NCBI GenBank assembly: GCA_964652255.1
Contig: CAZZBM010000001.1
Location: forward strand, 235,908-299,907
Direction: 5' to 3'
Length of the DNA stretch: 64,000 nucleotides
Source of the DNA: an uncultured bacterium
GTDB taxonomy: Bacteria; Bdellovibrionota; Bacteriovoracia; Bacteriovoracales; CAZZBM01
Below, piece after piece: positions 8,765 to 44,015 of this stretch. Position 1 is the first letter of the stretch; the number at the start of each line of letters is the position of its first letter. The position numbers were made by a program, and so were the translations under genes. Below the pieces are notes generated by a model. The model was not told the DNA's origin and did not search any database. It was given only the letters and a program-made list of their open reading frames with translations.

Positions 8765-8797
8765 TAAGAGCTCATAGAATAACTCTATGAGCTCTTA
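8765..8797 (+). promoter_or_regulatory. perfect 13-bp-stem hairpin enclosing the start codon of the next gene
   Basis: tAAGAGCTCATAG-aataact-CTATGAGCTCTTa. The ATG of the 8787 ORF and an upstream AAGAG sit in opposite arms. No T-run follows. Confidence 0.4.
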
Positions 8798-9164
8798 TGA
8801 CGACTCAGACTTATTTCTTTTTAAAAAAAGATTAAAAAAAAGAAAATTAAAAAAGATTTTTCTTGATAGTCTTATTTTCTTAATTTCCTTTATTTTTATC
8901 GTGAGATTTTTATTTTCTGAAGGAGCTTTTTTAGATTATCTAAGATCAAAAAAAAATTTAAATAACAAAATTAAAGAACTTTCTGATCTTAAATTAGAAA
9001 TTGCTTCCTTAGAAGAAGATATTAATATTTTTAAAAATAAGTTTCATCAACAAAATATTCTAAAAAAAAAACTTGGTTTAATTAAAAAAGATGAACACAT
9101 TCTTATTCTTTCAAAGAACATCAATAGGCATAATGAAGGTACAATAAAGAGTAATGAGAAATAG
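8787..9164 (+). CDS. FtsB/DivIC-like septum-formation initiator (TM helix plus coiled coil)
   Basis: 125 aa. Basic N-terminus, one TM helix, then a heptad-like segment NKIKELSDLKLEIASLEEDINIFKNK. Assignment is by architecture only. Confidence 0.4.
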   Translation: MSSYDDSDLFLFKKRLKKRKLKKIFLDSLIFLISFIFIVRFLFSEGAFLDYLRSKKNLNNKIKELSDLKLEIASLEEDINIFKNKFHQQNILKKKLGLIKKDEHILILSKNINRHNEGTIKSNEK

Positions 9165-11577
9165 GAATTCTTAAAGGTAAGCCTCCAAAAGGTTGTGGAT
9201 TCAAAAATGGGTTAGGATTTTTAATCGGAAAAACATGACTTTTACTCAATAAAAAATTACTTTCATGTTTTAGAATACTGATAGGTAAAAAGGTAAAACT
9301 CTGAAGAGAAATTACTTGTGGCATTTTTTCTTCAACTTGAAAAGTTAGAGTTTTTTTAGTGGGAGTTTCTTCTTCTAGTGCATTTTTTAAAAAACCCATA
9401 AAGGAATATCCCTCTTGTTGATAGAAAGATTCTTTAATAAATTCATTTTGAGGATCAAGAAGGGTTAAATTTTTAAAATCATGATGTTTAAAACTTAAAT
9501 AAGAATATTTTATATTTTCATTCATAGGATTTAAAAAATTATGACTAGGGTCTAAAATAGATCCTGGTAAAAAATCTATGTTTGTTGAATTATTGACAAT
9601 ATATTGGGTATCAAATATTTTAAAGTTTAAAGGTAGACAAGAATCTAAAATTGGTTCTTGAGATTTAAAAACATTACAAAAAGAATCATTTTCTGTAAAT
9701 TGATAGCTTTTAGCAAAAGTTCTTATAGGTAAAAAATAATTTGTATTTTGAAAATTTTCATTTTCTATAAGTTCTTTTTTAGCAGTTTTTAAAAGATTTT
9801 CTTGATAATTTGACATAGAATCATAAAAATTTGCTTCATGAAATAAAGCAAATAAAGGATGTAGTGAATTTTTAATTTTATAAGAAATAGCATCTTGAAT
9901 ATTTTGCTTTTCTTCAAATTCCTGTAAATACCCTTCTAATCTAATTCGATTTTTTAATCTTAAGTTTACAGCATCAAATTGCAATCCAGAATGTATATGA
10001 ATAATAGGATTTTCATTGTTATTAGTGATTAAACCTGTAACATCAGCCAAGTTATAAGTAGTAAAGCCTACCTGCATTTTAGCCCAAGAATCTTTATTAA
10101 ATGGATCAGCCAATGGAGCAATATAACTTTGCATAGAACAAAGTAGCTCACCGGCACCAGCACCCACTCCTGGTGATCCATAAAGAGATAAGAATGTTGT
10201 ATCAATGCCTAATCCGATTAAATATTCATACATCATTCTCTGTCTAAAAATTCTAAATTCATACTGAGTTTGACTTCCTTGTACAGTATTGTAATAACCC
10301 ACATTAAAATCATTAAAACATAAGTCATTCAAGGATCTGTTAATAAAAGGTAAAATATTAAAAAAATTTCCATAATAATTACTAAGTCCATTAAAAATTT
10401 CTGTATCATTACTTATAATTTCTGTTAAACTTAAATCAGTATCATAAATACCACTTAAGGGTTTAGTGAAAGACCATTCATTATATTTTATTTGTGAAAG
10501 AACATCTTCATAAATAGGATAATCTGGTTCATCTTCATCATATTCATTGCTATAAGGAAATTTACTTTCATCAGTTACATTCATAAGCTCTGAAATGAAC
10601 CCATTATCATTATTAAATGTATTAGGTAGATTTTTAAAATTAATTCCATCTACACCAACAACATTAACAACTTTAGGAAGAACAAGATCTTCACTATAAA
10701 TATCTTGATTATTTTCTAAATAGGTAAATTTAAAGCAAATTTCACGAGCAGCACTTTCTCCTTTACTAATAGCAATACTATTATTTGTTCCATCATTAAA
10801 AATATATCCCTTTGTTTTAGCCAAAGCCTTTTTATTAAAAACAAAAGAAAAAGTATCGGTTCTTTGATCCCAAAAGAATTTATAAGGATTTCCCTCAATA
10901 TAGTTATTAGGATTAAAATCACTATCTACAATAACTTCAGGATACTTAAAGTAATAAGAGTCAAAATCTGATGTTGTTACATAAGCGAAGAGATCATAAA
11001 AAACAGTGTAGAGAGAAGTATCTAAAATACTGCCATTACATAAACCAAGCTCAACCTTAAGAGCTGTTTCTTCATGAGGAGTTGTTCTAAATTTTAAATT
11101 AATCTTAAAATGAACATTATTATTTAAAGAAGAAAAAGTTCTATTTTGAACTTCATATTCTTGGTATCCCCCATTAAAAGGTTCAAAACTTAAATCAAAA
11201 GCATTAGAGTCAAGTTGGTAAGACAAAGATAAATTAGCACTTTGATTACAACTATTAGGTAAATTCAAAGAAAGGCTAGCTTGTTCTCCACTATACGGGG
11301 TAAAAATTTCTACATATTGTTCAAGACCATGCCAATAAATATTTTTAATTTCACAATTCGTACAAGTAAAATCATTTTCATTTAAAATATCATTACATCC
11401 TTTTATAGCCACAAGATGTTTTGAAGCTTGATGATTTATTTCACTAGAGCTACTTTTTAAAATCATACCAAAAGCTTCAAGATAATTGTTGTTATTGCTA
11501 TTTAACAATTCATTTTCTTTTTCTTGCAAAGCTAAAGAACAACTTGTTAAAAATAACAATATAATTTTAATAAGCAT
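9121..11577 (-). CDS. large paralogous Cys-rich lipoprotein, family member 3 of 3 (unknown function)
   Basis: 818 aa. Lipobox LFLTSC followed by SLALQEK. Shares co-linear blocks with the two upstream genes (FTCTNCEI, PHEETALKV, C-terminal ...YLHYAY). Confidence 0.85.
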   Translation of the reverse strand: MLIKIILLFLTSCSLALQEKENELLNSNNNNYLEAFGMILKSSSSEINHQASKHLVAIKGCNDILNENDFTCTNCEIKNIYWHGLEQYVEIFTPYSGEQASLSLNLPNSCNQSANLSLSYQLDSNAFDLSFEPFNGGYQEYEVQNRTFSSLNNNVHFKINLKFRTTPHEETALKVELGLCNGSILDTSLYTVFYDLFAYVTTSDFDSYYFKYPEVIVDSDFNPNNYIEGNPYKFFWDQRTDTFSFVFNKKALAKTKGYIFNDGTNNSIAISKGESAAREICFKFTYLENNQDIYSEDLVLPKVVNVVGVDGINFKNLPNTFNNDNGFISELMNVTDESKFPYSNEYDEDEPDYPIYEDVLSQIKYNEWSFTKPLSGIYDTDLSLTEIISNDTEIFNGLSNYYGNFFNILPFINRSLNDLCFNDFNVGYYNTVQGSQTQYEFRIFRQRMMYEYLIGLGIDTTFLSLYGSPGVGAGAGELLCSMQSYIAPLADPFNKDSWAKMQVGFTTYNLADVTGLITNNNENPIIHIHSGLQFDAVNLRLKNRIRLEGYLQEFEEKQNIQDAISYKIKNSLHPLFALFHEANFYDSMSNYQENLLKTAKKELIENENFQNTNYFLPIRTFAKSYQFTENDSFCNVFKSQEPILDSCLPLNFKIFDTQYIVNNSTNIDFLPGSILDPSHNFLNPMNENIKYSYLSFKHHDFKNLTLLDPQNEFIKESFYQQEGYSFMGFLKNALEEETPTKKTLTFQVEEKMPQVISLQSFTFLPISILKHESNFLLSKSHVFPIKNPNPFLNPQPFGGLPLRIPISHYSLLYLHYAY

Positions 11578-13900
11578 AATCCACCATCACCGAACCATAG
11601 TTAATAAAAGGCATCATAATAGGTCTATAGAGCATAGGAATACCTAAAATGTTCCCAGAAGAATCACTATTTTCGCTTGAAAAAACAGGTCCTAAATTTT
11701 CAAAATTGGTCGTTCCATTATTCCACCACCAAAAAAGACCTCGAATCCAAAGAGGCAATTGAGTATGAATAAGTAATATTTTTCTTTCAAATTTTTTATG
11801 CTCAGATAAATCAAATATAGTTTTAAATTTTTTTTCTTTTTTGTGTAAATCAACTAAATGAGTGTTAAATTCATGATTATAAATTGTTTTTCTATTTAAA
11901 TTATTTTTTACTGTTACATTGACATTTTTTGGTGGATCTATAAAAGGAGAAAAAGGTTTTTCATTACCAACATCTATTGGATCATAATAAGAATAAGTTG
12001 TTTTTAACAATTGATGTGTACTAGGAGAACAATTATCTATATAAGGTTTTTCATCATTAAAAACATTACAATAAGAATCACCATCTAAGATCACTGCACT
12101 CACAAGAAGATCTTGTTCATGACTAACTAATTGATAAGATTTTTTTTTATCGTGATCTATGCTATAAAAATTTTGAACAAATTGATTTCTTGAAGCTACA
12201 CTTGCTGATTCTAGAAGAGTGTTACCATAGATTAAAAAATCTTCATCATAAACAATGTCATTATTATTATAATTTTGTTTTTTTTCAATTTCTACTTTAG
12301 TAGATAAGATTAATTCACCAGATCCTGAATAAAAAATAAGTCCATTTCTTAAGCTTGAAAATTCATTCATATTTTCTTGTATTTTATTGTGACTAGCTGT
12401 CACTTCAGCAAAAGAACTCTTGTAAGCCAATTGAGCTTTAATAAAAGAACTTTTTAAGTTTCCATAATCTGAATGATTTAAAAAAGAAGATGTTTTACAA
12501 AAAACACTTTCATTAGCTCCAGTAGAAAAAAAATTAGGAGCTAAAGTGCTGTAAAAACTACCATTATGATGATAATCATCAATATAACCAGTATTAATAT
12601 GTTTTTTAATAAAACGTGCTTTAAATTGATTAAAATCAATTTGATCTGTATGAAAATAGTCTGTATTCCATGAATCGCAAAAATTTAAAATTCCATTATC
12701 AAAAAATTCTTTGTAATCAATGGGAATAGTGCTAAAAATATCACCATAAAAATAACTATACCAATTACTAATACTATTTTGATAAGAAAGATCAAAATCA
12801 GTATTATCTTCTTGTAAAGTATTTAAGTCCCATTCAATATATTTAGGAGAAAAATTTTCATCAAAATCATTAACAAGATCTTTATTCTTCTTGCAATGAG
12901 AATGAGGATAATGATTTTGATCAGTAATTGCTGCCATGGTAATAAAATATTCATCGGGACAATCTTGAGAGGAATTAAAATTAATCATCTCAGTCCCTAC
13001 AATATTAAGAACTTTTCTTAATTCTATTTTTTGAGTTTTTAAATCTTGTTGATTTTCTCTATAAAAAAAGAGTATACAGTATTCTAAAGGTTTTTCATTG
13101 TCATTAGTATAAATTTTTTTAAATGTTCTATTAGTTTCTTGAGCTATTTTATATTTATCAAATAAAAAACTTAGCTTTCTTTCTTGTCTGTCCCAATGAA
13201 CCAAACCACTATCATAATCTTTTAAAGATTCATTAAAATCAAAGGGGCTTCCTGCCCCAGTTATAGTATCCTTAACCGGTAGTGTTGTCGTTATTTTTTC
13301 TTTTACAAATTCATAAAGATCAAAAATAGCTTCATACCTTATGATATCATCATCATTTTCTTTGCCACAGGTTCCAAATTGAACCTTAAGCTCAGTTCCT
13401 TCATGAGGAATATAATCAAAATTTAAATCAACCTGAAAATAAACTCTCGTATTTATATTAGTATAAGTTTCATCATGTAAATTTTTTCCTTGAATTCTAT
13501 CTTGTAAAGTTACTCCTGCCTGAAAATCATTGGCTCTATCTTTAAACTTATAGGAATCTCCCGAAGCAGACGCACAAGAACTATTCACGTCAAAATTTAG
13601 ATTCACTAATTGTCCTGTATAAAGTGGTAAAATCTCTACATTAAACTCTTGATCTCCATAAGGAGTGATACTTTTTATTTCACAATTAGTACAAATTAAA
13701 TCATTTAAAGTTAAATCTGGACATTTAACAGAGAAATTTCTTCTTCCTTCATCGCTAGTTCCAGAAGTGATACTGTTCATTAAATGAATTCCTATTCCCA
13801 AATCATGATCAGGATTATTGTTTGAATTAGTTGATTTAATTGTTTTTTCCTGAAGAGCTAAAGAGCAAGATGTGATAAAAAGAAATAAATACTTTTTCAT
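11567..13900 (-). CDS. large paralogous Cys-rich lipoprotein, family member 2 of 3 (unknown function)
   Basis: The track ORF starts at 13918. The ATG at 13900 gives MKKYLFLFITSC-SLALQEK, matching the paralogues. Shared blocks include LICTNCEI and PHEGTELKV. The C-terminus is ...VDYAY. Confidence 0.85.
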   Translation of the reverse strand: MKKYLFLFITSCSLALQEKTIKSTNSNNNPDHDLGIGIHLMNSITSGTSDEGRRNFSVKCPDLTLNDLICTNCEIKSITPYGDQEFNVEILPLYTGQLVNLNFDVNSSCASASGDSYKFKDRANDFQAGVTLQDRIQGKNLHDETYTNINTRVYFQVDLNFDYIPHEGTELKVQFGTCGKENDDDIIRYEAIFDLYEFVKEKITTTLPVKDTITGAGSPFDFNESLKDYDSGLVHWDRQERKLSFLFDKYKIAQETNRTFKKIYTNDNEKPLEYCILFFYRENQQDLKTQKIELRKVLNIVGTEMINFNSSQDCPDEYFITMAAITDQNHYPHSHCKKNKDLVNDFDENFSPKYIEWDLNTLQEDNTDFDLSYQNSISNWYSYFYGDIFSTIPIDYKEFFDNGILNFCDSWNTDYFHTDQIDFNQFKARFIKKHINTGYIDDYHHNGSFYSTLAPNFFSTGANESVFCKTSSFLNHSDYGNLKSSFIKAQLAYKSSFAEVTASHNKIQENMNEFSSLRNGLIFYSGSGELILSTKVEIEKKQNYNNNDIVYDEDFLIYGNTLLESASVASRNQFVQNFYSIDHDKKKSYQLVSHEQDLLVSAVILDGDSYCNVFNDEKPYIDNCSPSTHQLLKTTYSYYDPIDVGNEKPFSPFIDPPKNVNVTVKNNLNRKTIYNHEFNTHLVDLHKKEKKFKTIFDLSEHKKFERKILLIHTQLPLWIRGLFWWWNNGTTNFENLGPVFSSENSDSSGNILGIPMLYRPIMMPFINYGSVMVDYAY

Positions 13901-13901
13901 G

Positions 13902-16217
13902 TTAATAACCATAATCAATAATTAAATAAGAATAATTTACAAGAGGCATTTTAACGTATTGATGATAAAAAGGAGTTAGGCTTTGAGGATCAAAAATAAA
14001 AGGAGAATGTTCAACACCATTTTTCATCGTAGGAAATAAATCCATAGTGTGATAAATTCCTATAGTTAATGGATAAGAGGAATTCTTGAGTGAAAAAAGA
14101 GTTTCACTAATTCTTTTTTGTTTATACTCTTCAGTTAAATTATACTCAGCATTTTCATTGTCATCTAAAAAAATTTCTACAACTTTAGTAATAAAAATTT
14201 TTCCTAAATAAGATATTGCAGAGCCATTAGTTTGAATAAAACTTATTAAATCTTCTTTAAAGTTTCGATCAACATCTATAACAAATTTCCAATAAGAATC
14301 AGGTGGATTGTCTTCGTATTGAATTTTTAAAGGATAAAAATTATCTCCCTGATAATTTGTAGATGAACTTATAGTATGAACATGTGTTCTAATTGTAGGT
14401 TCATCATTAAGTAACTGTCTTAAGACATCTGTATTAAATAGTTCTTCAGTGTTTCTAAAAAGAGGACCTACTTCTAAAATATAAGCATAACCCCCTGTGA
14501 ATTTTTTATTACTCTCTCTAAAAAGATCTCTATCTCCAGATAAATTATGAGAGCCTGGTCCAATTTCAGCTGGATTTTCTAAATCGTTAATTTTAACAAC
14601 AGAACCCTTTAATCTTGCACGAACATCAAGTGTTTCACTAGCACTATAAAAATCAATACTTGCTTCTAAAGAAAAATAATCCTGACCATCTTGATGTTGA
14701 TCTTTTATTCTATTGTGAATCATTGTAAGTTCTGGCAAAAAATTATTGTTAAAAGGTAATTGATTCTTAAACCAAGTTCCATCTGTTTTTAAAGGAGATA
14801 AAAGATCAACATCACTTAGAACATGACTTTGATTTCGACAAAGAGTATTTTCAAAAATAAAACCTTGAGTTAATCCCTGCCAAAGACTTCTGACCTCAAA
14901 TTGATTTAAAGAGTTGTTATTTTGATAGACTCCCAAAAGAGGAGGACAAGTAAAGTTTGTGTCTTTTAAGGGCATAAAGCTAAGATAACTTCCAAAATAA
15001 TTATTAAACCAACTAGTAAAATTATTAAAAGATGCTACTTCACTTAAATCTTTTAAGGGCTCAATCTCAGCAAAATCTAAATATTTTGTTTCAAAAAATG
15101 ATGGTTTTTTAGCAATTTTAGCACTTTGGCAATTTGAGTTTGGAAATTTAAATCCTTCTTCATGAACAGCCCCTAAGGAATAATAAGTTTGATGTTGTCC
15201 TATACTATCAGGACAAGTAGTATGTTCAGAAGTATTAAATAAAGCAGTTCCTACAACAACTGGTATTTTCTTTTGATAAGTTTTAGAAGTACTTACTAAA
15301 TTACTATTATTAACATTAACAACAGTATCACCTTCTTCATAATAAGAAGCTTCTAAACAATAATTTTTTGCTGCTGTTTTAAGTCCAGGATCAGGTGTAA
15401 CGTTGTTATATTCATCAGCATATACATGATTATTAGCAAAAGCTACTTTTTTTTTATCTAAATAAAAAGAAAGTTTTTTCTCTTGTTCATTCCATTGCCA
15501 AATAAAAGAACTCTCTGGATTTAGAGTTAAAGCATGATCAATAAATCTAAAGTTATGTGAATTACTACTTTCATAAATGACTGATGTATTAACTGTTTGA
15601 GGAGATTTTATTTGATCATATAGATCAATAACAATCTCGTAGCTATCTCCTACAATGTTAAAATCTTGATTACACACTCCATAACTAATTTTTAAATAAG
15701 TATGTTCATGTGGTGGATACTTAAAATAAAGATCATGTTTAAAAAAAATTTTATTATTAATACTTTTATAGTTAGAGCCTTCAATATTTTTAATTAAAAA
15801 ATTTCCGTCTTCAACAGTTGTTTTAAAATCAACAATAGCATTAGGTGATTCTTTGAAAAAATATTTTCCATAAGTAGGAATATTTCCAGAATAACAAGAA
15901 CTTAATGGGTTAAAAAATAGACTTACTTCGTGTCCAGTTTTATGAGCTAAAATAGTCACATAATGTTCATAATTTCCATGAGGATTAATTTCTAAAATAC
16001 GACAATTATTACATTCTAAGTCATTAAAATTAAGATTAGGACAATTTTTAACAGAAACAACCTGCTTGGATTCTTTATTATAAGAATCATAAGAAGTGCT
16101 TATAAGAGTAAGAGCTGGTTCAAAATTGTTATTAGGATCATTAGAAGTAGTAGAGGATAAACTATTTTCTTTTAAAGCTAAGGAACAGGAGAAAAAAAAG
16201 AGTAACAAAAGCCTCAT
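13902..16217 (-). CDS. large paralogous Cys-rich lipoprotein, family member 1 of 3 (unknown function)
   Basis: 771 aa. N-terminus MRLLLLFFFSC-SLALKEN. Shared blocks include LECNNCRI and PHEHTYLKI. The C-terminus is ...IDYGY. Confidence 0.85.
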   Translation of the reverse strand: MRLLLLFFFSCSLALKENSLSSTTSNDPNNNFEPALTLISTSYDSYNKESKQVVSVKNCPNLNFNDLECNNCRILEINPHGNYEHYVTILAHKTGHEVSLFFNPLSSCYSGNIPTYGKYFFKESPNAIVDFKTTVEDGNFLIKNIEGSNYKSINNKIFFKHDLYFKYPPHEHTYLKISYGVCNQDFNIVGDSYEIVIDLYDQIKSPQTVNTSVIYESSNSHNFRFIDHALTLNPESSFIWQWNEQEKKLSFYLDKKKVAFANNHVYADEYNNVTPDPGLKTAAKNYCLEASYYEEGDTVVNVNNSNLVSTSKTYQKKIPVVVGTALFNTSEHTTCPDSIGQHQTYYSLGAVHEEGFKFPNSNCQSAKIAKKPSFFETKYLDFAEIEPLKDLSEVASFNNFTSWFNNYFGSYLSFMPLKDTNFTCPPLLGVYQNNNSLNQFEVRSLWQGLTQGFIFENTLCRNQSHVLSDVDLLSPLKTDGTWFKNQLPFNNNFLPELTMIHNRIKDQHQDGQDYFSLEASIDFYSASETLDVRARLKGSVVKINDLENPAEIGPGSHNLSGDRDLFRESNKKFTGGYAYILEVGPLFRNTEELFNTDVLRQLLNDEPTIRTHVHTISSSTNYQGDNFYPLKIQYEDNPPDSYWKFVIDVDRNFKEDLISFIQTNGSAISYLGKIFITKVVEIFLDDNENAEYNLTEEYKQKRISETLFSLKNSSYPLTIGIYHTMDLFPTMKNGVEHSPFIFDPQSLTPFYHQYVKMPLVNYSYLIIDYGY

Positions 16218-16283
16218 ATGTTCTTATTTTATCGTTTTTTTTCTCTTTTCAGAGAATGGTAAAAGTTGTATAAAAAAGCCTTC

Positions 16284-17897
16284 ATGAAAGATTTCTTTAT
16301 CTATGACAAAGAACTAAAAAACATTGATCAATCAGATCTAGGCAAAAAATTCACTCTGTGTGGTTTTGTTTCTCAGGTGAGAGATCTTGGTCATCTTGTT
16401 TTTATTGATTTAAGACAAGAAAATTATTTTTTACAACTCAACATTGCCAAGGAATTTTATCAAAAAGCTTCCCTTGAAAGTGTTATTCAAGTCGAAGGTA
16501 TTCTTTCCAAAAAAGAAGAAAATAATGAAAAAATTAAAAATGGTGATTTAGAACTTATTGTTGAATCTATGATTATTCTTTCCCTAGCTCAAACTCCTCC
16601 TTTTCTTCCTAATAAAGAAGCTAAAGAAGAATTAAAATTAAAATATAGATACCTAGAGTTAAGAAACAAACAATCTTTTTTAAAATTTAGAAGCGATCTT
16701 TCCTTAAAAATAAGACAATTTTTTCATCAAGAACATTTTACTGAAATTGAAACACCTTTACTTTATAAAAGCACCCCTGAAGGATCTCGTGATTATGTTG
16801 TTCCTAGTAGAATTCATCCAGGGCATTTTTATGCTCTTCCACAATCTCCTCAAACCTTAAAACAATTATTAATGATCAGTGATTTTTCTAAATACTTTCA
16901 AATTTGTAAGTGTTTTAGAGATGAAGATTTAAGATCTGACAGACAACCAGAATTCACTCAAATTGATTTTGAAGTTTCTTATCCAGAAGTTTCTTTTTTT
17001 AAAAAATTTAATGAAAAACTTTTTTCTTTTCTTCTTAATCAAGATATTACCTTTGAAGAACTTAGTTATGATGATGCTATAAAATTTTATGGTTCAGATA
17101 AGCCTGATTTAAGATTTGATTTAAAGTTTCAAGATCTTCCTTCTCATGATTTTGATCAAATCAAACCCTTATCTCGTTGTTTGTTTTTAGATTCATCTTA
17201 TTCTCTTTCTAGAAAAGAAATTGATGATCTTTGTGGTAAGAAAATCTACTGGTTTAAAGTTGAGAACAAGTTATTATCAGGTGGGATAGCTAAGTTTATT
17301 AAAGGACAAGAATTAAAATCAGGTTTATACTTTATAGGAGAAGCTCAGGATCTTCATTCTCTTAGAAAATTTTTTGCACATAAATTCAATCTTTATAAAA
17401 GAGATTATTCATTTCTTTGGATTTATGACTTTCCTCTTTTTGAAGAAGGAGAAGAAGGAATTCAAGCTAAACATCATCCTTTTACAAGAGTTCAAAGAGA
17501 TCAGTTAGACGATTTTTTTGAAAATAAAAATTTATTAAACCTAAAGGCTGATGCTTATGATCTTGTTTGTAATGGTTACGAATTAGGGGGTGGTTCTTTA
17601 AGAATATTTTCTGAACAAGAACAATATCACCTTTTTAAGATTTTAAAACTTTCTGATGAAAATATTAAAAATCAATTTGGATTTTTTCTAGAAGCTTTTA
17701 AATACGGAGTTCCTCCACATGGAGGAATGGCTTTAGGATTTGATAGAATTTGTATGATTCTACAACAAACAGATAACATCCGAGATGTTATTGCTTTTCC
17801 AAAAACTACAAGTGCAACAGATCTTATGAGTGAAACACCTAGTAAAATCTCTTCTGAACAATTAAAAACAGTGCATCTCTCACTTGACATTAAATAA
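16284..17897 (+). CDS. aspS: aspartate--tRNA ligase
   Basis: Class IIb motifs are present: FRDEDLRSDRQPEFTQID, GGGSLRI and PPHGGMALGFDRI. The track ORF begins at TTG 16266; ATG 16284 (MKDFFIY...) is preferred. The insertion (GAD) region looks shortened. Confidence 0.9.
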   Translation: MKDFFIYDKELKNIDQSDLGKKFTLCGFVSQVRDLGHLVFIDLRQENYFLQLNIAKEFYQKASLESVIQVEGILSKKEENNEKIKNGDLELIVESMIILSLAQTPPFLPNKEAKEELKLKYRYLELRNKQSFLKFRSDLSLKIRQFFHQEHFTEIETPLLYKSTPEGSRDYVVPSRIHPGHFYALPQSPQTLKQLLMISDFSKYFQICKCFRDEDLRSDRQPEFTQIDFEVSYPEVSFFKKFNEKLFSFLLNQDITFEELSYDDAIKFYGSDKPDLRFDLKFQDLPSHDFDQIKPLSRCLFLDSSYSLSRKEIDDLCGKKIYWFKVENKLLSGGIAKFIKGQELKSGLYFIGEAQDLHSLRKFFAHKFNLYKRDYSFLWIYDFPLFEEGEEGIQAKHHPFTRVQRDQLDDFFENKNLLNLKADAYDLVCNGYELGGGSLRIFSEQEQYHLFKILKLSDENIKNQFGFFLEAFKYGVPPHGGMALGFDRICMILQQTDNIRDVIAFPKTTSATDLMSETPSKISSEQLKTVHLSLDIK

Positions 17898-18911: not shown

Positions 18912-20846
18912 TTAAAAGGCTTGATTTTCTGAACTAAAATTAAAACTCTTATCAAAAGCAGCTGAACCACCACCTTTTGGTTCTGGAAAGTTAATTGATC
19001 TTAATACATTAGAGATACAAGCTCTTCCAGCTTGACTCCATTGATTACCCTCAACCTTAACTCCACTCACACTAGCTCCAGGGTTAATAATAAAAGAAAC
19101 TTTAACCACTCCCCTTAATTGACTATTTTTAACAAGTTCTTGTTGATAGCAATATTGAAACTGAGATTTAGCTTCATTTAATAAACGATCTACTAGTTCT
19201 GGATCAATACTTCCTTTTAAAACTGTTCTTGTACCACCTTTGGCTGTATCAAGAGATCCTCTTTCAGCAAGTCCTCCAGCTCCATAACCAGCCTTTGAAA
19301 CAGCTCCGGAATAATCTGAACCTACTCCACCCACAGCTCCAACTCCAGCTCTAAGTGATCCACCCGTGTTATCAGAGTTAACGACAACCTGACCACTTTT
19401 TACTCCTTCTAAGCTGTTTGACTGAGCAGCAGTCACTGATCCACCATAAGCTTTTTGACTTGATCCCATAAGATTAGCAAAAGACCCTTGGCTTTTCACA
19501 CCACCAAAGGTTTTTGCTGGTGCTGGAGCTGGAGGAGGTGCTGATTGTGGAGTTGTAGGTGCTGGCTGAGATCCACGAGTACTTTGTCGTTTTTCATCCA
19601 TAGAAATTTTTGGGATAGCAGCTTTTTTTGTAATTTTAGGAGACTCTGTTTTAGGAGATTTCATGCCTTCATGAGCCACTTGTTTTTTAGGCTTAGAAAC
19701 AGATCCTACTTTTTCTTGAGCAGCCGGAGCTAATTGTTTTTTTGTATTTGCTGCATTTTTTTCTTCTTTAAGAGTTTTATCTTTCACTCCTTTTTGCACC
19801 TCTTCAGGTTTCTTTTTAGCTTTTGGTTCAGGGGGAGTTTCAGTTTTTAAAACTTCAGGTTCTTTCTTAACAACTTTTTCTTTAGGAGGAGTATAGATAA
19901 CAGCAAGTTTTTTCACTTCTTCTTTTTTAATAAAAAGAGAAGGGTCTACTAAAAGTAAGATTAAAAAAGGAAGTGCTAAAGGTAAAAAAATAAGAAGAGC
20001 TTGCATTAAAAAAGCTCTTTCTCTGGCAAAAGGTGATAAAGGTAAAATTTTTGGAGGTTGATCTGAAATTTTTAAAACAACATGCTGAGTTTTATAAGTG
20101 CAAATAATTTCATCATCAGTTGTTACATCATAAAGTTCTTGCTGGATAATTTCTTGATTTTTCTTTTTAGAAAATACTTTTAAATCTTTTTGTGGATAAA
20201 GTTGAACTCTACCACCACTCACTTGAAGAAAAGAAGATTTAACCAACAAAGAATCCATTAAAAGAGTGTCTTTATCCTCTTCTGGTCCAATATACCAAGT
20301 TTTATTTTCATGAATATTAAGATAATGAATATCTAAGATAATATCTTTCTCTGTGACAAAAATTTCTAAACTTTGACCTGGATTATCTTGAATAATAGGA
20401 AAAATTTCTTCACTAGATTCTAAATCTACATATTGATCAGCTACTGGCTCTATTTTAGATAGAGGTGATACTCTTAAAGATGAAAAGTCCTGTTCAAAAT
20501 GTAGATAACAATATTCATCTTCTATTAATACAGGTTTTTGTTTTAATTGTAGATTTGGAACAAAAGATTGTTCTATTTTTTGAAAGATCAAAGAAAAAAC
20601 TTGATCTTCAACCTCTAAATAACAAGAATCTTTGGTAATAAATTCTTGATACACTTGACCATGAATTTTAAAGGATCCTTGCAAGGCTTTAATTTCAACA
20701 AAATCTTCACCTACATTAAGACTAAGAAGGGTATTTTTAAGTCCATTACTTGCATCAATAGTTTGAAGACCTAAGTAAAGATCTTTTAAACCTTGATCAG
20801 ATTTTAACTGAAAAAAACTTGGGACAATTTTTTTTGCTTCACTCAT
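18912..20846 (-). CDS. AgmX/PglI C-terminal-domain protein (GltG/GltJ-like, TonB-like architecture)
   Basis: 644 aa. Cytoplasmic N-domain, one TM helix (LLIFLPLALPFLILLLV) and a Lys/Pro/Ala-rich spacer. The C-terminal domain reads QFQYCYQQEL...RGVVKVSFIINPGASVSGVKVEG...CISNVLRSINFPEPKGGG. Confidence 0.7.
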   Translation of the reverse strand: MSEAKKIVPSFFQLKSDQGLKDLYLGLQTIDASNGLKNTLLSLNVGEDFVEIKALQGSFKIHGQVYQEFITKDSCYLEVEDQVFSLIFQKIEQSFVPNLQLKQKPVLIEDEYCYLHFEQDFSSLRVSPLSKIEPVADQYVDLESSEEIFPIIQDNPGQSLEIFVTEKDIILDIHYLNIHENKTWYIGPEEDKDTLLMDSLLVKSSFLQVSGGRVQLYPQKDLKVFSKKKNQEIIQQELYDVTTDDEIICTYKTQHVVLKISDQPPKILPLSPFARERAFLMQALLIFLPLALPFLILLLVDPSLFIKKEEVKKLAVIYTPPKEKVVKKEPEVLKTETPPEPKAKKKPEEVQKGVKDKTLKEEKNAANTKKQLAPAAQEKVGSVSKPKKQVAHEGMKSPKTESPKITKKAAIPKISMDEKRQSTRGSQPAPTTPQSAPPPAPAPAKTFGGVKSQGSFANLMGSSQKAYGGSVTAAQSNSLEGVKSGQVVVNSDNTGGSLRAGVGAVGGVGSDYSGAVSKAGYGAGGLAERGSLDTAKGGTRTVLKGSIDPELVDRLLNEAKSQFQYCYQQELVKNSQLRGVVKVSFIINPGASVSGVKVEGNQWSQAGRACISNVLRSINFPEPKGGGSAAFDKSFNFSSENQAF

Positions 20847-21628
20847 TTTTTTAAACCCTCATTAATCCTACGTTCTAAAGATAGTGTTGTATCTGTGGGA
20901 TCTTTAATATATTTCAAAATTTTTCTAGCTTCTTTTAACTGATTGTTTTCGATTAAAGCTTCTGTATACTCTATAATATAATCTTCACTGATTTTTAAAT
21001 CTTTTGAACTCATCATAGAAAAATATTTAACAGCTTCTGGATAATTTTTATTTTTTTTATAAGATAAAGCTAAAGAAGATAATATAGAAGGATCTTTTTG
21101 ATTGATTTGATAAAGTTTTTCAAAAGATTCTATGGCTTTTTGAAAATAACCATATTCTAAATAAATTTGTCCCAAGTTATAGACAGGAGTCACCAAATTA
21201 GGGTTTTCCTTCTGAACTTTTTGAAAAATATCAAAAGCAGCTTTTATATTTTTTTGTCCAAGATAAATAATTCCTATATTATTTAAAGCAGCTGGATAAG
21301 AAACTTTATTTTTTTTAGCTGTTTCAAGAGAATAGTTATAATAAAATTTTGCTTTTAATAAATTATTATTTAAAAAATAACAATTTCCTACTTGATTCCA
21401 ATATTCAGGATCATTTTTTCTTGTTTTTACTTCTTGTTTTAAATGATCTAATCCTTCTTGAAATTTTCCTTCATGACAAAGTGCAACACCTTTTAAGTCT
21501 GAATTTTTCTTTTCTATTTCACCTAATGTTTTTTTATTATATTTAATTAAAGACTCATTAGCAAAAATATTTTTTTCTTGAGAATCAGTTTGACAAGCAA
21601 TAAGTAATAAAAAAATTATTTTTTTCAT
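20843..21628 (-). CDS. TPR-repeat lipoprotein
   Basis: N-terminus MKKIIFLLLIAC-QTD (lipobox). Repeated 34-aa TPR-like units follow (WNQVGNCYFLNNNLLKAKFYY, LNNIGIIYLGQKNIKAAFDIF, etc.). ATGA overlaps on both sides. Confidence 0.65.
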   Translation of the reverse strand: MKKIIFLLLIACQTDSQEKNIFANESLIKYNKKTLGEIEKKNSDLKGVALCHEGKFQEGLDHLKQEVKTRKNDPEYWNQVGNCYFLNNNLLKAKFYYNYSLETAKKNKVSYPAALNNIGIIYLGQKNIKAAFDIFQKVQKENPNLVTPVYNLGQIYLEYGYFQKAIESFEKLYQINQKDPSILSSLALSYKKNKNYPEAVKYFSMMSSKDLKISEDYIIEYTEALIENNQLKEARKILKYIKDPTDTTLSLERRINEGLKK

Positions 21629-24546
21629 TTTTTACCTTTTAAATTTATTCCTTTTTGAGTATCTGTTGGTGCAATCATTTTTTTATTTCTAGTTTCTCTT
21701 GCACCTTTTAATTCTAAATTCTTTTTAGTAAAAATCATGTTATTTTCACTAGCTTTTAAAGCTATTTGATTAAAATCCTTCGCTTTTTTTCTAAGATCAT
21801 TCACAATAGGCTTCATAGCTTGTTTAAAAGTTTTAACATACTCTGGACCTTCATTTTCAGGGTTTATAGCATCAATATCATTAGCCACTTTTTCATAACC
21901 AAGACTCAAAGATTTATATATATCCAAAGTAATTTGAGGAAAACCTAATTTTAATTTAATGTTAGCTTCATCTGTATAAGCAGTTAAAGATTTAAAAGCT
22001 TTATCTAAATCAGCTTGAAAAATCTCCTCTTTAAAGGGATTGTTAGGTCTAAAATAATTGAAAGATTCTTTTTTTATCTTATCCACAAAAGCTTGAGAAT
22101 TAAACACATCTCCCACTTTTTTATTAGAAGAAGCTAATGGACCTAAAACAGATCTAATTTGTTTGACTTTTTCTAACTCATTATATTCTTGAGCATACCA
22201 GTACATACTCATATAAGCATCTATGAAATAGATTTCATAATTTTTGTTTTTTCCATAAATATTATAATATTTATTTAAATAATCTATGTTCTGAATATCA
22301 GCTATTTCTTTAATATTTTGTAAAACAACTTCATTATGTTTTTTAGGATTTACCCCACAAGATTCACCAAGTTTTAGCATATTTAAAGATTGATCTACTT
22401 TGCCATCTATTAAATAAATATAAGCAGAGTTAGAAAAGAATTCTTCTTTTTCTTTAAAATTTTCCTTACAATATCTTTCTAACATCATTTTAGATAAATC
22501 TGCTGATAAAGTAAGTTCTTGATAAGTATAATATTGTCTCACAATAAGAAGTATTTTATCTCTTAAAGAAAAAACTTCTTGATTAGACTGCATTTTAAAA
22601 CTAGCACTTAAATATTCATAAGATTTTTTAAACTGATCTAGCTCTAAAAAAAGACCAGAAGCATTAAAAGAAGCTTTTGATTTTATTTTATTACCAAAAT
22701 TATTATTAGCATAAATTTTTAAATATTCATTCGCAGCTTCTTCTTTTTTATTAGCTTTTTCAAGAACTTCAATTTTTTCAAAATACAATGAAGCAACTGA
22801 AGCTTCTAAGTTATCTTTAAATTTTTCATCAAAACCTAGATAACCTGTTTTTGTTTTATTAAACCAGTATAAAACTCTCTCTAAATTTTTCTTTTTTAAA
22901 TCTTCACTCACAATAACATTAATCATACCTTTTTGTATGGTTTGATTTTCAGGAAAATTTGCAACAAAAGGTTCAATTAAACCATTAGCTTCATCATATT
23001 TATTATGTTTAACATAAAGGTTAAACAACTTAGGATAAATACTTTCACTAACTTTATCTTTCGGCCATAAAGTAAGATAAGATCTATAAGAGTAGACAGA
23101 GTAATCATAAGTCATTTTTTCATCTAGAACATTTTCACCTAAAATAGATAACATACTATTAAGACATTTCTTTTTTAGATCCATTTTATCTTTAGGATTC
23201 ATCTTTAAAGAAAACTCTAAAGTATTTCTATAAGAAACCATCGCTCTAACATATTCTAAAGCTCCGTAAAGAGTTTCTGATTGGAAAAATGTATATTCAT
23301 CAATTTTAACTGGATTTAAAATTTTTAAAGCATCAAAATACTTTAATGTGACTTCTAGATTTTGAGGACTATATTTTGATCCTCTTTTTTTATTATCACG
23401 ATCAACTGATTCAATGACTCTTTTTTGAAACAAACCTGCAATATCAGTAATTTCACTAATAGCATTTTTTTTATCATCTTCACTAAATTCTTTATAATCT
23501 TTAACCTTAATAATAAAAGGTAAAGTTTTAAAATGTTCGTTTAAATCATTATTTTTTCTATAAATATCTAGCATAGCCATATAAGTTTTAACTTCACCTG
23601 CTAAATCTTTTTTTTCTATAGTACTTTTTCTAGAATTATCTAAAATATATTTAGTTTTTTTAACATCACCTATTTCAAGATTTTTATAAGCATACGCTAC
23701 TAAAAATTCTCCTGGATTAGGAGCATTTTTAGAAATAAAATCAACACCTTCTTCTATTCTTTTAGTAGAGAGAAAAAAATAAGGCGAAGCATATAAAATT
23801 TGTTCTGATAAATCAGCATAAATTTTTTTTCCATCTTTTCTATACTTTGAAAGCTGAAAAGATGTCTTTAGGGTGGTCAAAGCTTCTTCTAATTTTCCAA
23901 CCTTACTTAAAGACCAAGCATAGTTAAAAAGATGCTTAGTTAACCATTCACTGTTTTTATCTTTAATAATCTCTTGATAGTAATTAACAGCTTGTTTAAA
24001 ATCTTTTTTATTATAAAAATGTTCAGCCAAAGCAACTTGAACATTATAAATAAGAGGACTTTTTGAAGGAGTTTTTCTTAAAGCTTCAAATAGAAACTGT
24101 TCTGATTTTTTCATATCAGCACCAAAGTCTCTTGCATTAAGTCCTAATGTTAAATAAATTTCTCCAATTCTTATATAATTAGGATTTTTATTAACAATAT
24201 TAACACCAAAACTTTCTATTTTTTTATATTCGGATAAACTTTTTTGAAAATAAGGTTCTTTTTTTAAATTTTTATTTTTTTTTACATCTGTTATATATCT
24301 AGCATTTTCTTCATCTCTAATAACCTTAAGTCTTTCGGTATAAAGTTCTAGTAATCTAAATTGTAATTCAGGTCCAACAGTTCTATTTTTAATGATTTCA
24401 TTTATTTCTGAATTAATCAAAAACAAATTCCTTGCTCTTCTTTCTCTTTCACTAATAGCTTTAACAGCATCTTTGTCAGATTTAATCACAGTGTTAAAAT
24501 CTTTTTTATTTTGAGTTTTTGCTATAAGAAAAAAAAGAAGCATCAT
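21625..24546 (-). CDS. very large TPR/helical-repeat protein (GltD/AgmU-like by size and context)
   Basis: 973 aa. N-terminal hydrophobic segment, then helical-repeat composition throughout. Lies in the operon with the TolQR-type genes. Confidence 0.5.
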   Translation of the reverse strand: MMLLFFLIAKTQNKKDFNTVIKSDKDAVKAISERERRARNLFLINSEINEIIKNRTVGPELQFRLLELYTERLKVIRDEENARYITDVKKNKNLKKEPYFQKSLSEYKKIESFGVNIVNKNPNYIRIGEIYLTLGLNARDFGADMKKSEQFLFEALRKTPSKSPLIYNVQVALAEHFYNKKDFKQAVNYYQEIIKDKNSEWLTKHLFNYAWSLSKVGKLEEALTTLKTSFQLSKYRKDGKKIYADLSEQILYASPYFFLSTKRIEEGVDFISKNAPNPGEFLVAYAYKNLEIGDVKKTKYILDNSRKSTIEKKDLAGEVKTYMAMLDIYRKNNDLNEHFKTLPFIIKVKDYKEFSEDDKKNAISEITDIAGLFQKRVIESVDRDNKKRGSKYSPQNLEVTLKYFDALKILNPVKIDEYTFFQSETLYGALEYVRAMVSYRNTLEFSLKMNPKDKMDLKKKCLNSMLSILGENVLDEKMTYDYSVYSYRSYLTLWPKDKVSESIYPKLFNLYVKHNKYDEANGLIEPFVANFPENQTIQKGMINVIVSEDLKKKNLERVLYWFNKTKTGYLGFDEKFKDNLEASVASLYFEKIEVLEKANKKEEAANEYLKIYANNNFGNKIKSKASFNASGLFLELDQFKKSYEYLSASFKMQSNQEVFSLRDKILLIVRQYYTYQELTLSADLSKMMLERYCKENFKEKEEFFSNSAYIYLIDGKVDQSLNMLKLGESCGVNPKKHNEVVLQNIKEIADIQNIDYLNKYYNIYGKNKNYEIYFIDAYMSMYWYAQEYNELEKVKQIRSVLGPLASSNKKVGDVFNSQAFVDKIKKESFNYFRPNNPFKEEIFQADLDKAFKSLTAYTDEANIKLKLGFPQITLDIYKSLSLGYEKVANDIDAINPENEGPEYVKTFKQAMKPIVNDLRKKAKDFNQIALKASENNMIFTKKNLELKGARETRNKKMIAPTDTQKGINLKGKK

Positions 24547-24549
24547 TTT

Positions 24550-25065
24550 TCAAACCTCATTTGTCACAATCAATCTATATTTTGGAAATCCAGCAGCAGC
24601 TGTCGTAGTAAAAATTTTTTTTAAATTTTTATAAGGAACAGTCTTATCAATAACTAGATTAATATGTTGATAAATTTCTTCTCCAGAAAAACCCATAGTA
24701 AGAACGTCTAATTGTTTTTGACCACTTTGCACTAATTGATTAAATTTTTCTTCTAATAATTCTTTCTCAACTTTTAATTTATCAAAAAGTTCTGGAATCA
24801 CCATTACTTGATCATCTTTAATGCTACCTATAAGTTCATCTTTAAGATAGATATTTCCATCAGAAGCTAACTGAACAATAATTTCATTACGACCCATTTG
24901 TTCAGATAAAGATGTTACCATTTCTAAATTTTTTGCTAATTTTATTTGAACATCAGATGCTGTATAAGCTGTTAACAAAAACACCACTATAATAGTCACA
25001 ATATCCATTAAAGCTGTGATATCTTGCTCTAAAACTTCTTTTTGTTCTCTTTTTTTTCTAAACAT
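24550..25065 (-). CDS. ExbD/TolR-family protein
   Basis: 171 aa. N-terminal pattern DITALMDIVTIIVVFLL is a single TM helix typical of ExbD/TolR. Confidence 0.8.
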   Translation of the reverse strand: MFRKKREQKEVLEQDITALMDIVTIIVVFLLTAYTASDVQIKLAKNLEMVTSLSEQMGRNEIIVQLASDGNIYLKDELIGSIKDDQVMVIPELFDKLKVEKELLEEKFNQLVQSGQKQLDVLTMGFSGEEIYQHINLVIDKTVPYKNLKKIFTTTAAAGFPKYRLIVTNEV

Positions 25066-25073
25066 AATTTATC

Positions 25074-25592
25074 CTATTGAAACATGACCATTTCAAATAA
25101 ATTTCTTGTTTGTTTCAAATTTCCCTGTTCATCTTTTATTGTAATAATAGGCGTTGAATGATTTTTAGCTATCATTTGACCACGATCAACAACTTTAACA
25201 ATAGAATCATATTCAACGTTTGCTTCAGAAACGATAATTAAAGAGTTTTCATAAGGAAATTCAACCTTTGTTTGGATAAAAACATCTTGTAATTTAGATA
25301 AAAAATCCTGATCACTAAATTTCAAACTAGCAATTGTTCTTTTTTCTGACCCAATTCCTCTTTGAATTCTAACATTTTCTAATCCTATAAAAGCAGTCAG
25401 GTTTAAAGGTTTTTTATCTGTTTTTGTATTATTCAATTCTGAAAAAACAGGAGCTTCTGAAATAATATGTCTAATTTCAATAAAATTAGCATTCATCAAA
25501 AGGAAAAAAGTAATAATAAACATAATATCCATAATGGACACAATGCTTCCTTGTTTCATGGATAAAGATTTAATATTTCTTTTTTTATACAT
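25074..25592 (-). CDS. ExbD/TolR-family protein (second copy)
   Basis: 172 aa. SIVSIMDIMFIITFFLL TM segment, same architecture as the neighbouring copy. Confidence 0.78.
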   Translation of the reverse strand: MYKKRNIKSLSMKQGSIVSIMDIMFIITFFLLMNANFIEIRHIISEAPVFSELNNTKTDKKPLNLTAFIGLENVRIQRGIGSEKRTIASLKFSDQDFLSKLQDVFIQTKVEFPYENSLIIVSEANVEYDSIVKVVDRGQMIAKNHSTPIITIKDEQGNLKQTRNLFEMVMFQ

Positions 25593-26290
25593 TAGGCTGC
25601 CTCATCTAAAGCATGATTTGCTTTCGTTGTTAATAAATCTACTAATTTGACTGAACTTTGATCAATATCTGAGATCATTTTTTGAGCTTGAGAACTTAAA
25701 TAAGTATGTAAAACTAATAAAGTGATAGCAGATACCAGACCAAAAGCAGTTGTATTCATAGCTACTGATATACCTTTTGCTAAGAGTTGTTGTTTTAAAT
25801 TAGCTTCTGCTGTTGCCACAGCTGAAAAAGACTGAATAAGACCTTGAATCGTTCCTAAAAGTCCAAGAAGAGTACTCATGTTAGAAAGAAGAGCTATATA
25901 ATTAAATCTTTGCTCTATTTTTGGAATCACTTCAAGCATAGATGCTTCCATAGAATCTTGAATTTGAACCTTAGATTGATTAGCTCTTTTTAAACCATTC
26001 TTTAAAACAGTAGCTAAACCTGATTGAGACCCAGCACAAATCTGAATAGCACCTTGAACATTATTTGAAATAACCATTCTTTTGATTTGACTAAAAAAAC
26101 TTGGACCATCAACTGTCACTTTTTTTAAATAATTCCATCTATCAATCACTAGAATGATCCCAGATATCCAAACAAAAGAGATGACGAACATAAAAACGCC
26201 ACCTTCTGTCATAAATCTAGCAAACCATTGTAAAATATTTTCATTTGTTGTTACTGCCATTGCAGCTTCATTCATTACTTGTGTTTCCAT
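25592..26290 (-). CDS. MotA/TolQ/ExbB-family proton channel protein
   Basis: 232 aa with three TM helices. Conserved C-terminal region LSNMSTLLGLLGTIQGLIQSF...GISVAMNTTAFGLV. Confidence 0.85.
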   Translation of the reverse strand: METQVMNEAAMAVTTNENILQWFARFMTEGGVFMFVISFVWISGIILVIDRWNYLKKVTVDGPSFFSQIKRMVISNNVQGAIQICAGSQSGLATVLKNGLKRANQSKVQIQDSMEASMLEVIPKIEQRFNYIALLSNMSTLLGLLGTIQGLIQSFSAVATAEANLKQQLLAKGISVAMNTTAFGLVSAITLLVLHTYLSSQAQKMISDIDQSSVKLVDLLTTKANHALDEAA

Positions 26291-42158: not shown

Positions 42159-42499
42159 TTTCTTTAGATGGAATTTTAGTTGAAGATTCTTTTGTAGCTC
42201 AAAATATTTTCACTTCCACTTTAGGTTACATGTTTAGAAAAGAACCTCATTATTCTATGATTTATTTTCCTAAATCTTTTTTAAGATTGAATTTATCTTT
42301 TCATACTTTTTTTTGTTCTTTTCCTTTAAACTTTTATTTTTTCAACAAACATCAAGAGGTCATTGGTTTGTTACTTCAAATAGAGCCTTGGGGTTATTTT
42401 TCTATGAGATCTCAACATTATGAATCTCTTTTAGAAGTTCCCACTTCTTCTTCCTGGAATCAATCTCTACGTTTAGGAACAAAATTATGTATAAATTAG
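42155..42499 (+). CDS. DUF192-like protein
   Basis: 114 aa. LGYMFRKEP, FHTFFCSFPLNFYFFNK...VIGLLLQIEPW and SLLEVPTSS...LRLGTKL parallel the DUF192 (COG1430) blocks. ATGA overlap upstream. Confidence 0.5.
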   Translation: MISLDGILVEDSFVAQNIFTSTLGYMFRKEPHYSMIYFPKSFLRLNLSFHTFFCSFPLNFYFFNKHQEVIGLLLQIEPWGYFSMRSQHYESLLEVPTSSSWNQSLRLGTKLCIN

Positions 42500-43971: not shown

Positions 43972-44015
43972 TTTCAAGAAATTAACCGACATAAGAACAG
44001 GAGAGAATTGTTTTT

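Follow-up and report, generated by a model that had tools for sequence, protein, structure and literature searches.

An apparently lineage-specific block of three paralogous orphan genes with lipoprotein-type signals between ftsB and aspS of an uncultured Bdellovibrionota-related bacterium

Introduction

Paralogous lipoprotein families that are restricted to a single lineage are known from Borrelia (Mlp, Erp/OspE-F and Vsp/Vlp) and from Mycoplasma (Vlp, Vsa and the multigene lipoproteins of M. pneumoniae), where the proteins are mostly of 20–60 kDa, usually lack disulfide-type cysteine patterns and are encoded on plasmids or accompanied by poly-A/poly-TA tracts, invertible promoters and silent cassettes. 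Large lipoproteins with beta-rich lobes are found in Neisseria/Moraxella, where TbpB, LbpB, fHbp and HpuA reach the surface of a diderm cell in a Slam-dependent manner with a C-terminal beta element as the export signal, and where genes of the TbpB type are paired with a gene for a TonB-dependent receptor. Here we analysed a 64,000-nucleotide stretch of DNA (hereafter the window; positions 235,908 to 299,907 of contig CAZZBM010000001.1, assembly GCA_964652255.1) from an uncultured bacterium related to the Bdellovibrionota, and in it a 7.1-kb block of three consecutive minus-strand genes, A, B and C, which encode large proteins with lipoprotein-type signals. The three are real, related genes of a functionally unassigned family that lies as a lineage-specific insertion between ftsB and aspS, and in the reading that we favour (with a probability of roughly 0.55) they would specify a co-expressed, exported and lipid-anchored trio with a non-enzymatic role, in binding or in structure, at the outer membrane or cell surface.

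Gene organization and paralogy

In the list of open reading frames (ORFs) of the window, gene A (13902–16217, 771 amino acids) is the first of the block, followed on the same strand by gene B (11567–13900, 777 amino acids from the ATG at 13900) and gene C (9121–11577, 818 amino acids). The layout described by a first-pass annotation, with three consecutive minus-strand genes of these sizes separated by a 1-nt gap and an 11-nt overlap, was recovered at exactly the same positions. The A/B junction (...GAT TAT GGT TAT TAA C ATG) holds the 1-nt gap, and the 11-nt overlap between B and C (ATGCTTATTAA; ...GAT TATG CTT ATT AAA) places the start codon of C inside the C-terminal tail of B. Two alternative in-frame starts lie upstream of the ATG of B, an ATG at 13912 (781 amino acids), from which the public gene call (P0001) begins, and a TTG at 13918 (783 amino acids), and there is no upstream in-frame start for A. 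Since the Tyr-Gly/Ala codons of the shared tail create an ATG automatically, a start of B at 13912 would give the A/B junction the same 11-nt overlap that is seen between B and C.

At the base composition of this DNA 7.9% of random codons are stops, and the chance probability of a 770-codon ORF is ~2e-28. That all three ORFs have remained intact despite ~73% divergence in such stop-rich DNA indicates selection for coding. The lack of homologues anywhere searched would fit an account in which the ORFs are chance products or decaying remnants; however, this is scarcely credible for three intact frames of 2.3–2.5 kb whose Cys, Gly, Pro and Trp positions and signal peptides were kept in the alignment after deep divergence, and whose codon usage is typical of the genome.

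The paralogy of the three proteins, which had been proposed from blocks visible by eye, has firm statistical support, with BLASTP E-values of 5e-49 (A–B), 3e-44 (B–C) and 8e-29 (A–C) and 26–27% identity that is collinear over 570–698 columns. The multiple alignment contains both the common mature N-terminus SCSLAL[QK]E and the common C-terminal tail that the first-pass annotation had pointed out, and its motifs ND[LF]xC[TN]NC[ER]I, PHExTxLK[VI], GxC, DL[FY] and W...[FL]SF are aligned across the family, with the exception of KV[VL]N[IV]VG, which fits B and C only (A reads IPVVVG). Conservation peaks over the first ~180 alignment columns (25–47% identity). The best-conserved N-terminal region of A (residues 49–339, 15201–16073, minus strand) carries six family-invariant Cys and the PHExT motif, as seen in the alignments and the Cys map, and corresponds to residues 51–316 of B (12953–13750, minus strand; the sequence used for modelling below) and residues 51–321 of C (10615–11427, minus strand). 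In the C-terminal half identity is 4–38% per 60 columns, and conservation climbs again over the last ~70 columns, where the C-terminal tail forms a conservation island (24–44% identity vs 10–22% just upstream). This tail lies on the minus strand at 13905–13973 in A (...PFYHQYVKMPLVNYSYLIIDYGY), 11570–11638 in B (...PMLYRPIMMPFINYGSVMVDYAY) and 9124–9192 in C (...PFGGLPLRIPISHYSLLYLHYAY), and all three proteins end in [DH]Y[GA]Y.

Profile–profile comparison of segments (hhalign) detected no internal repeats or duplications within the proteins, and the window holds no further paralogue. At the DNA level the copies resemble each other only in stretches of at most 52 nt with 73–83% identity, which implies that the duplications are old and that no recent gene conversion has taken place. 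The richness in Asn that had been noted was borne out (~10% in A, B and C vs mostly 2–8% in the other window ORFs), while the term "Cys-rich" proved too strong, as Cys accounts for 1.3–1.7% of the residues vs a window mean of 0.98%.

Export signals and cysteine pattern

The N-termini of the three proteins (MRLLLLFFFSC|SLALKE in A, MKKYLFLFITSC|SLALQE in B and MLIKIILLFLTSC|SLALQE in C) are each composed of Met, a basic residue, 7–8 hydrophobic residues and an [FIL][FT]SC lipobox, after which SLAL[QK]E is near-invariant. When compared with the lipobox core [LVI][ASTVI][GAS]-C, the signal peptides of B (13865–13900, minus strand; ITSC, Cys at residue 12, or 16 or 18 from the upstream starts) and C (11539–11577, minus strand; LTSC, Cys at residue 13) are exact fits and that of A (16185–16217, minus strand; FFSC, Cys at residue 11) is a relaxed fit, so that alignment and lipobox together confirmed the shared lipoprotein-type signal suggested earlier. 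The FFSC/LFSC variant is present on at least 8 other window ORFs, and the same short M-[KR]-hydrophobic-[LFIT]SC pattern on at least 12 (e.g., MRIIFLLFFSC, MKKIIFLALFSC and MKLLFLILFSC), which makes it look like the organism's normal lipoprotein signal. Genes of the lgt, lspA and lol type were not seen among the window proteins scanned.

Beyond the lipobox Cys, six Cys are invariant in A, B and C, in agreement with the matching positions that had been reported by eye. The other Cys are shared only as pairs, with A and B having 335/363 in common (314/336 in B numbering) and B and C having two such pairs (B 408/468 = C 420/480 and B 611/624 = C 634/647), and the number of Cys in each mature protein is even (10, 12 and 10, respectively). 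Paired gain and loss together with even counts is what disulfide bonding in an oxidising compartment would be expected to produce, and we consider it very probable that A, B and C are exported.

Lipoprotein-type signals occur on about one quarter of the window ORFs of at least 150 amino acids and are unusually short (M-[KR] plus 7–8 hydrophobic residues, Cys at residue 11–13), with examples at 2068, 18116, 20843, 29360, 35062, 36919, 53937, 55382, 56970 and 57578. Most lipobox-bearing window ORFs have no Pfam family, the exceptions being M3 and M23 peptidases. A second tandem paralogous lipoprotein family is found at 55382–57578 on the minus strand (185, 166, 157 and 202 amino acids; FFSC/LFSC lipoboxes; mutual BLASTP E-values from 1e-5 to 1e-20), again with no Pfam family, and is adjoined by a 170-amino-acid lipoprotein (57578–58090) with no detectable similarity to its members, so that the array may perhaps reach to 58090. 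Lipoproteins without a known family are thus the rule in this genome, and their number, including this second tandem family, makes the A/B/C block less exceptional.

Homology searches

Pfam and NCBIfam gave no match for A, B or C even at E ≤ 1, PHROGs and PADLOC gave none, and a sequence-profile search of the PDB was without a match at E ≤ 10. Among 1.84 billion protein representatives, the sole matches of a profile hidden Markov model (HMM) were B and C. Protein A is present in that collection, where a clustering artefact has filed it under an unrelated 31-amino-acid representative (MTKAVLYLRSATDSEAQTNQQAEDCREYLHE; P0123, P0124), which accounts for its absence from the results and means that individual proteins can escape a representative library. 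A word-indexed search of 5.8 billion proteins was empty, whether the query was the complete alignment (E ≤ 1e-3) or its N-terminal part (E ≤ 10); because it also missed the window's own B and C, which that collection contains, its negatives weigh less. No family member was found in motif-seeded scans of GTDB genomes, JGI metagenomes and IMG/VR, nor by tblastn of A, B and C against plasmids and phages. The impression that the proteins belong to no recognisable family therefore stood up to all of the profile, structure-sequence and representative collections. The same was true of the statement that no known adhesin repeat is present, as no Ig-like, cadherin, VCBS, RHS or autotransporter HMM matched at E ≤ 1 and no internal repeats were found.

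The first reading of the sequence had also seen no catalytic motif, and we likewise found no HExxH, no GxSxG and no enzyme-family match; in particular, the HExxH zincin motif is missing from A, B and C, and the sole invariant His is that of P-H-E-x-T, with no second conserved His. These results bear on the possibility that the proteins are periplasm-facing lipoproteins with an enzymatic role (a new hydrolase or lyase family) or a role as accessory components of a trans-envelope apparatus. A periplasm-facing orientation is the default for lipoproteins in most proteobacteria-like envelopes, and the invariant PHExT, D198, K176, D390-L391-S392 and K378-Y379 could form an active site. However, no enzyme family or solved structure was matched even at the loosest thresholds used (E ≤ 1–10), the two common catalytic motifs are absent, and the C-terminal half, the likeliest site for an enzyme domain, is the least conserved part of the proteins. 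The apparatus variant of this possibility is taken up with the genomic context below.

Genomic context

The block is flanked on the left by a plus-strand ftsB/DivIC-like gene (8787–9164, Pfam DivIC), whose 3′ end overlaps that of gene C convergently by 44 nt (9121–9164), and on the right by aspS, the plus-strand gene for aspartyl-tRNA synthetase (AspRS; 16266–17897), which served as the synteny anchor. Gene A and aspS are divergent and are separated by 48 bp (16218–16265), which make up the presumed promoter region and the right edge of the insertion.

The nearest AspRS relatives, both from uncultured samples, are 62% and 61% identical to that of the window and 83% identical to each other, and the next matches (45–51% identity) come from metagenome-assembled genomes (MAGs) of Bdellovibrio, Oligoflexia and Bacteriovoracia. 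In the nearest relative (L003), on a contig of 16 kb, 13 of the 13 genes that flank the block in the window have collinear orthologues with 31–71% identity (in the order S20, GYF, ..., Alr, MlaE, MlaF, MlaD, two small genes, ftsB, aspS), ftsB and aspS lie 40 bp apart on the same strand, and tblastn of A, B and C gave no match. In the second relative (L004) ftsB likewise adjoins aspS, with a gap of 32 bp. As ftsB stands next to aspS in relatives that keep the flanking order, the 7.1-kb block is a lineage-specific insertion, for which a gain in the lineage of the window appears the simplest account. The homology of FtsB to its counterparts in L003 (9620–9961) and L004 ends at residue 108–112, and its last 17 residues have no counterpart; this tail, which overlaps gene C, looks as if the insertion had displaced the original stop codon. 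In a more distant relative (L005, 51%) a small DUF192 gene on the opposite strand stands between DivIC and aspS, and this DUF192 gene occupies the ftsB–aspS gap of distant Bdellovibrionota relatives at L005 9417–9911 and L006 145–639. The site has thus accepted opposite-strand genes more than once.

The GC content of the block (26.7–27.7%) lies within that of the window (~25–35% throughout), and its codon usage is native, with relative synonymous codon usage correlating at r = 0.95–0.97 with host genes and a third-position GC of 0.12–0.14 vs 0.153 ± 0.027. We found no mobility genes in the block, no direct repeats flanking it and no phage or plasmid matches. Together with the native composition, this argues that the block is not a recent foreign island. 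The only other sample with the locus was Logan SRR12404947 (L007), which is 100% identical over 5 kb, with protein A and the DNA identical. The AspRS of the window and of its two nearest relatives (P0003, P0004 and P0005) lacks the GAD insertion domain (PF02938), which is present in all other bacterial-type AspRS among the matches listed (45–51% identity); with a GC content of 28% and a contig of 745,960 bp, this suggests a streamlined or reduced genome. Sponge-associated Bdellovibrionota MAGs have a GC content of 32–35%, and their sizes and GC are unlike those of the genome here (PMC9944714).

Some 2.7 kb from the block lies a minus-strand cluster (18912–26290) with ExbB/TolQ, two ExbD/TolR, tetratricopeptide repeat (TPR) proteins of 973 and 261 amino acids and a 644-amino-acid Pro/Lys/Ala-rich protein, which has no Pfam match and was read as TonB-like from its sequence. 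We take this cluster to resemble the Tol/Exb-type motor clusters tied to gliding or envelope functions in Bdellovibrio and myxobacteria. Its proximity would suit a periplasmic machine to which A, B and C contribute parts, but aspS, two tRNA genes and another gene separate the block from it, and on the evidence for both an enzyme and a machine we regard a periplasm-facing role as unlikely, if worth keeping in view. Elsewhere in the window, three consecutive FHA-domain proteins (494, 289 and 696 amino acids; 42487–46956) follow a T2SS-F/PilC-like gene (40878–42158).

Expression and variation signals

Upstream of the block, the gap that it shares with the divergent aspS is the sole non-coding DNA. 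Neither at the ends of A, B and C nor between them was a terminator-like site found, which, together with the tightly packed junctions, supports an operon; the terminator scan as a whole gave no more than shuffled DNA. A candidate 5′ hairpin that takes in the start codon of A was not significant and was dropped (z = 0.07).

The first-pass annotation had found the pattern of the block to fit a diversifying surface-protein family. In its full form this reading would make A, B and C variable antigens under positive selection, varied or switched to evade a host, prey or phage. In its favour, conserved blocks are separated by strongly diverged, Asn-rich stretches; divergence among the paralogues exceeds that of every flanking orthologue pair, which fits fast evolution, and the reduced-looking genome, with its small contig, low GC and GAD-less AspRS, hints at dependence on a host or prey. 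Nothing in the block, however, suggests machinery for phase or antigenic variation. Homopolymer tracts are not denser than elsewhere (1.12 per kb vs 1.59 per kb in the window), Tandem Repeats Finder returned only weak and short matches, and a promoter flanked by inverted repeats, silent cassettes or long near-identical DNA segments of the kind left by gene conversion were not found in the block. Furthermore, the richness in Asn is largely accounted for by the AT bias of the genome, and no polymorphism is visible, since the sole second sample is identical. At 26% amino-acid identity between paralogues, synonymous sites are saturated. Taken together, we judge a variable-antigen family to be very unlikely.

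Structure prediction

AlphaFold2 models were poor because only three sequences were available. The full-length model of A (pLDDT, the predicted local distance difference test score, of 33.8) was unusable, with a poorly modelled N-terminal region, low-confidence helices at residues 560–684 and no structure over the final 90 residues. The N-terminal region of B was predicted with a pLDDT of 53.9 and a predicted template modelling (TM) score of 0.42 as an all-beta structure of ~14 strands. In a Foldseek search of the PDB with this model, one match reached E ≤ 0.001 (the endoglin ZP module) and the rest were antibody or Ig-like domains, all of these matches having query-normalised TM scores of 0.17–0.30 and root-mean-square deviations of 6–18 Å. 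The N-terminal third of the proteins is therefore probably beta-sandwich-like, as far as models of this quality allow.

The conserved tail invites a further explanation, namely that it is an outer-membrane targeting signal and that the proteins are lipidated with a barrel-like C-terminal domain handled by the beta-barrel assembly machinery (BAM) or a Slam-like translocon, as in the TbpB-type lipoproteins of Neisseria. Its standing as a conservation island speaks for this, as do the [DH]-Y-[GA]-Y ends with hydrophobic or aromatic residues at positions −1, −3, −5 and −7 in all three proteins (−9 being Ser or Gly), because such a pattern resembles the classical C-terminal signature of outer-membrane proteins. 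On the other hand, similar aromatic C-termini are found on cytoplasmic proteins of this AT-rich genome (e.g., an aldehyde dehydrogenase ending in ...VFVF), the likely outer-membrane proteins of the window end in F rather than Y, and a Pfam scan of ~47 window proteins brought up no DUF560/Slam gene. The full-length model of A has helices where a barrel would be expected and is blank over the tail; it contains no beta-barrel, with a confidence too poor to exclude one. On balance, we hold this explanation to be highly improbable.

Discussion

Our favoured reading, a lipid-anchored trio with binding or structural functions, would begin with a single ancestral gene for a large exported envelope protein that was triplicated in tandem, the block having entered the site between ftsB and aspS in the ancestry of this Bdellovibrionota-related bacterium of low GC. 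The three genes would form one transcription unit, read from the 48 bp that separate A from aspS, and their translation may be coupled through the 1-nt gap and the 11-nt overlap. Each protein would be exported by its very short signal peptide and receive a lipid on the Cys of the [LFI][FT]SC lipobox, with Ser at +2 making sorting to the outer membrane probable; Ser at this position directs outer-membrane sorting under E. coli rules, which may not transfer to this lineage. A Ser/Asn-rich tether would then connect the lipid anchor to a disulfide-stabilised, all-beta N-terminal region that forms the conserved core, followed by a faster-diverging C-terminal half of ~450 residues and the conserved aromatic tail. 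The three diverged copies may provide three specificities or together build one hetero-oligomer.

Several points weigh against this account. The lipidation, outer-membrane location, expression as one unit and function of A, B and C are all deduced from sequence, and the promoter scan, at the level of shuffled DNA, is uninformative in a region this rich in AT. Under the PROSITE lipoprotein rule the Cys is placed at residues 15–35 and K or R within the first seven residues; a basic residue is present in all three proteins, but a Cys at residues 11–13 fails the length rule, although the canonical length criterion may not fit a lineage whose genome typically carries the short form. The "beta-sandwich" is only a hint, as it comes from models of low confidence (pLDDT 34 and 54), and the invariant P-H-E-x-T together with several invariant Asp, Lys and Ser residues could form an unrecognised active site. 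Finally, the paralogues (26–29% identity) are more diverged than the least-conserved flanking orthologues (31–39%), which means either that the family evolves faster than its neighbours or that the duplications may predate the split from the relatives, in which case the block would have been lost or moved there and not simply gained here.

A bolder version of the favoured reading would see in A, B and C a structurally new family that arose and was triplicated in one genome-reduced, Bdellovibrionota-like lineage as its specific apparatus for attachment to prey or host, with CSLAL[QK]E and [DH]Y[GA]Y as undescribed sorting or assembly signals; we consider this distinctly unlikely. The family is new in sequence, with no sign of a new mechanism or of a new kind of system. 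If surface-exposed, A, B and C would be the best candidates in the window for how an apparently genome-reduced relative of Bdellovibrio contacts its prey or host, and the fact that the organism keeps three diverged copies, at a cost of 7.1 kb (~1% of the 746-kb contig), suggests that these are important to it. With a precise insertion point, native codons and no known homologues, the family is also a well-defined case on which to test structure prediction and to study orphan genes. Otherwise, it would be one more lineage-restricted lipoprotein expansion of the kind that is common in poorly sampled bacteria, and opens no long-standing question.

Comparison with known systems

The predicted all-beta N-terminal third and its weak Ig-like fold matches recall the Big and beta-sandwich adhesins (Leptospira Lig, intimin and invasin), but in contrast to these the proteins have no Pfam Big or repeat match at E ≤ 1 and no internal repeats, and TM scores of 0.2–0.3 on a model with a pLDDT of 54 are no evidence of membership. 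To the Slam-dependent lipoproteins of Neisseria/Moraxella they are similar in being large lipoprotein-type proteins with a predicted beta-rich portion and a conserved C-terminal tail that could act in surface display in a diderm. They differ from them in having no Pfam or PDB similarity, in their neighbours ftsB and aspS, in the lack of DUF560 among the window proteins scanned and, relative to the TbpB-type gene pairs, in a block without a gene for a TonB-dependent receptor.

The second lipoprotein family of the window (55382–57578) shares with A, B and C the genome, the style of lipobox, the tandem same-strand layout and the lack of a Pfam family, but its members are much smaller (157–202 amino acids) and unrelated in sequence; its presence indicates that lipoprotein genes have been duplicated in tandem more than once in this organism. 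In comparison with the Borrelia and Mycoplasma families, to which they have no sequence similarity, A, B and C are much larger and carry a disulfide-type Cys pattern, and their block shows none of the plasmid linkage, tracts, invertible promoters or cassettes of those families. What they have in common with them is the clustering of paralogues, a shared signal peptide, lipobox and N-terminus on diverged bodies, the confinement of homologues to a narrow lineage, and a host genome that is AT-rich and, in our case apparently, reduced.

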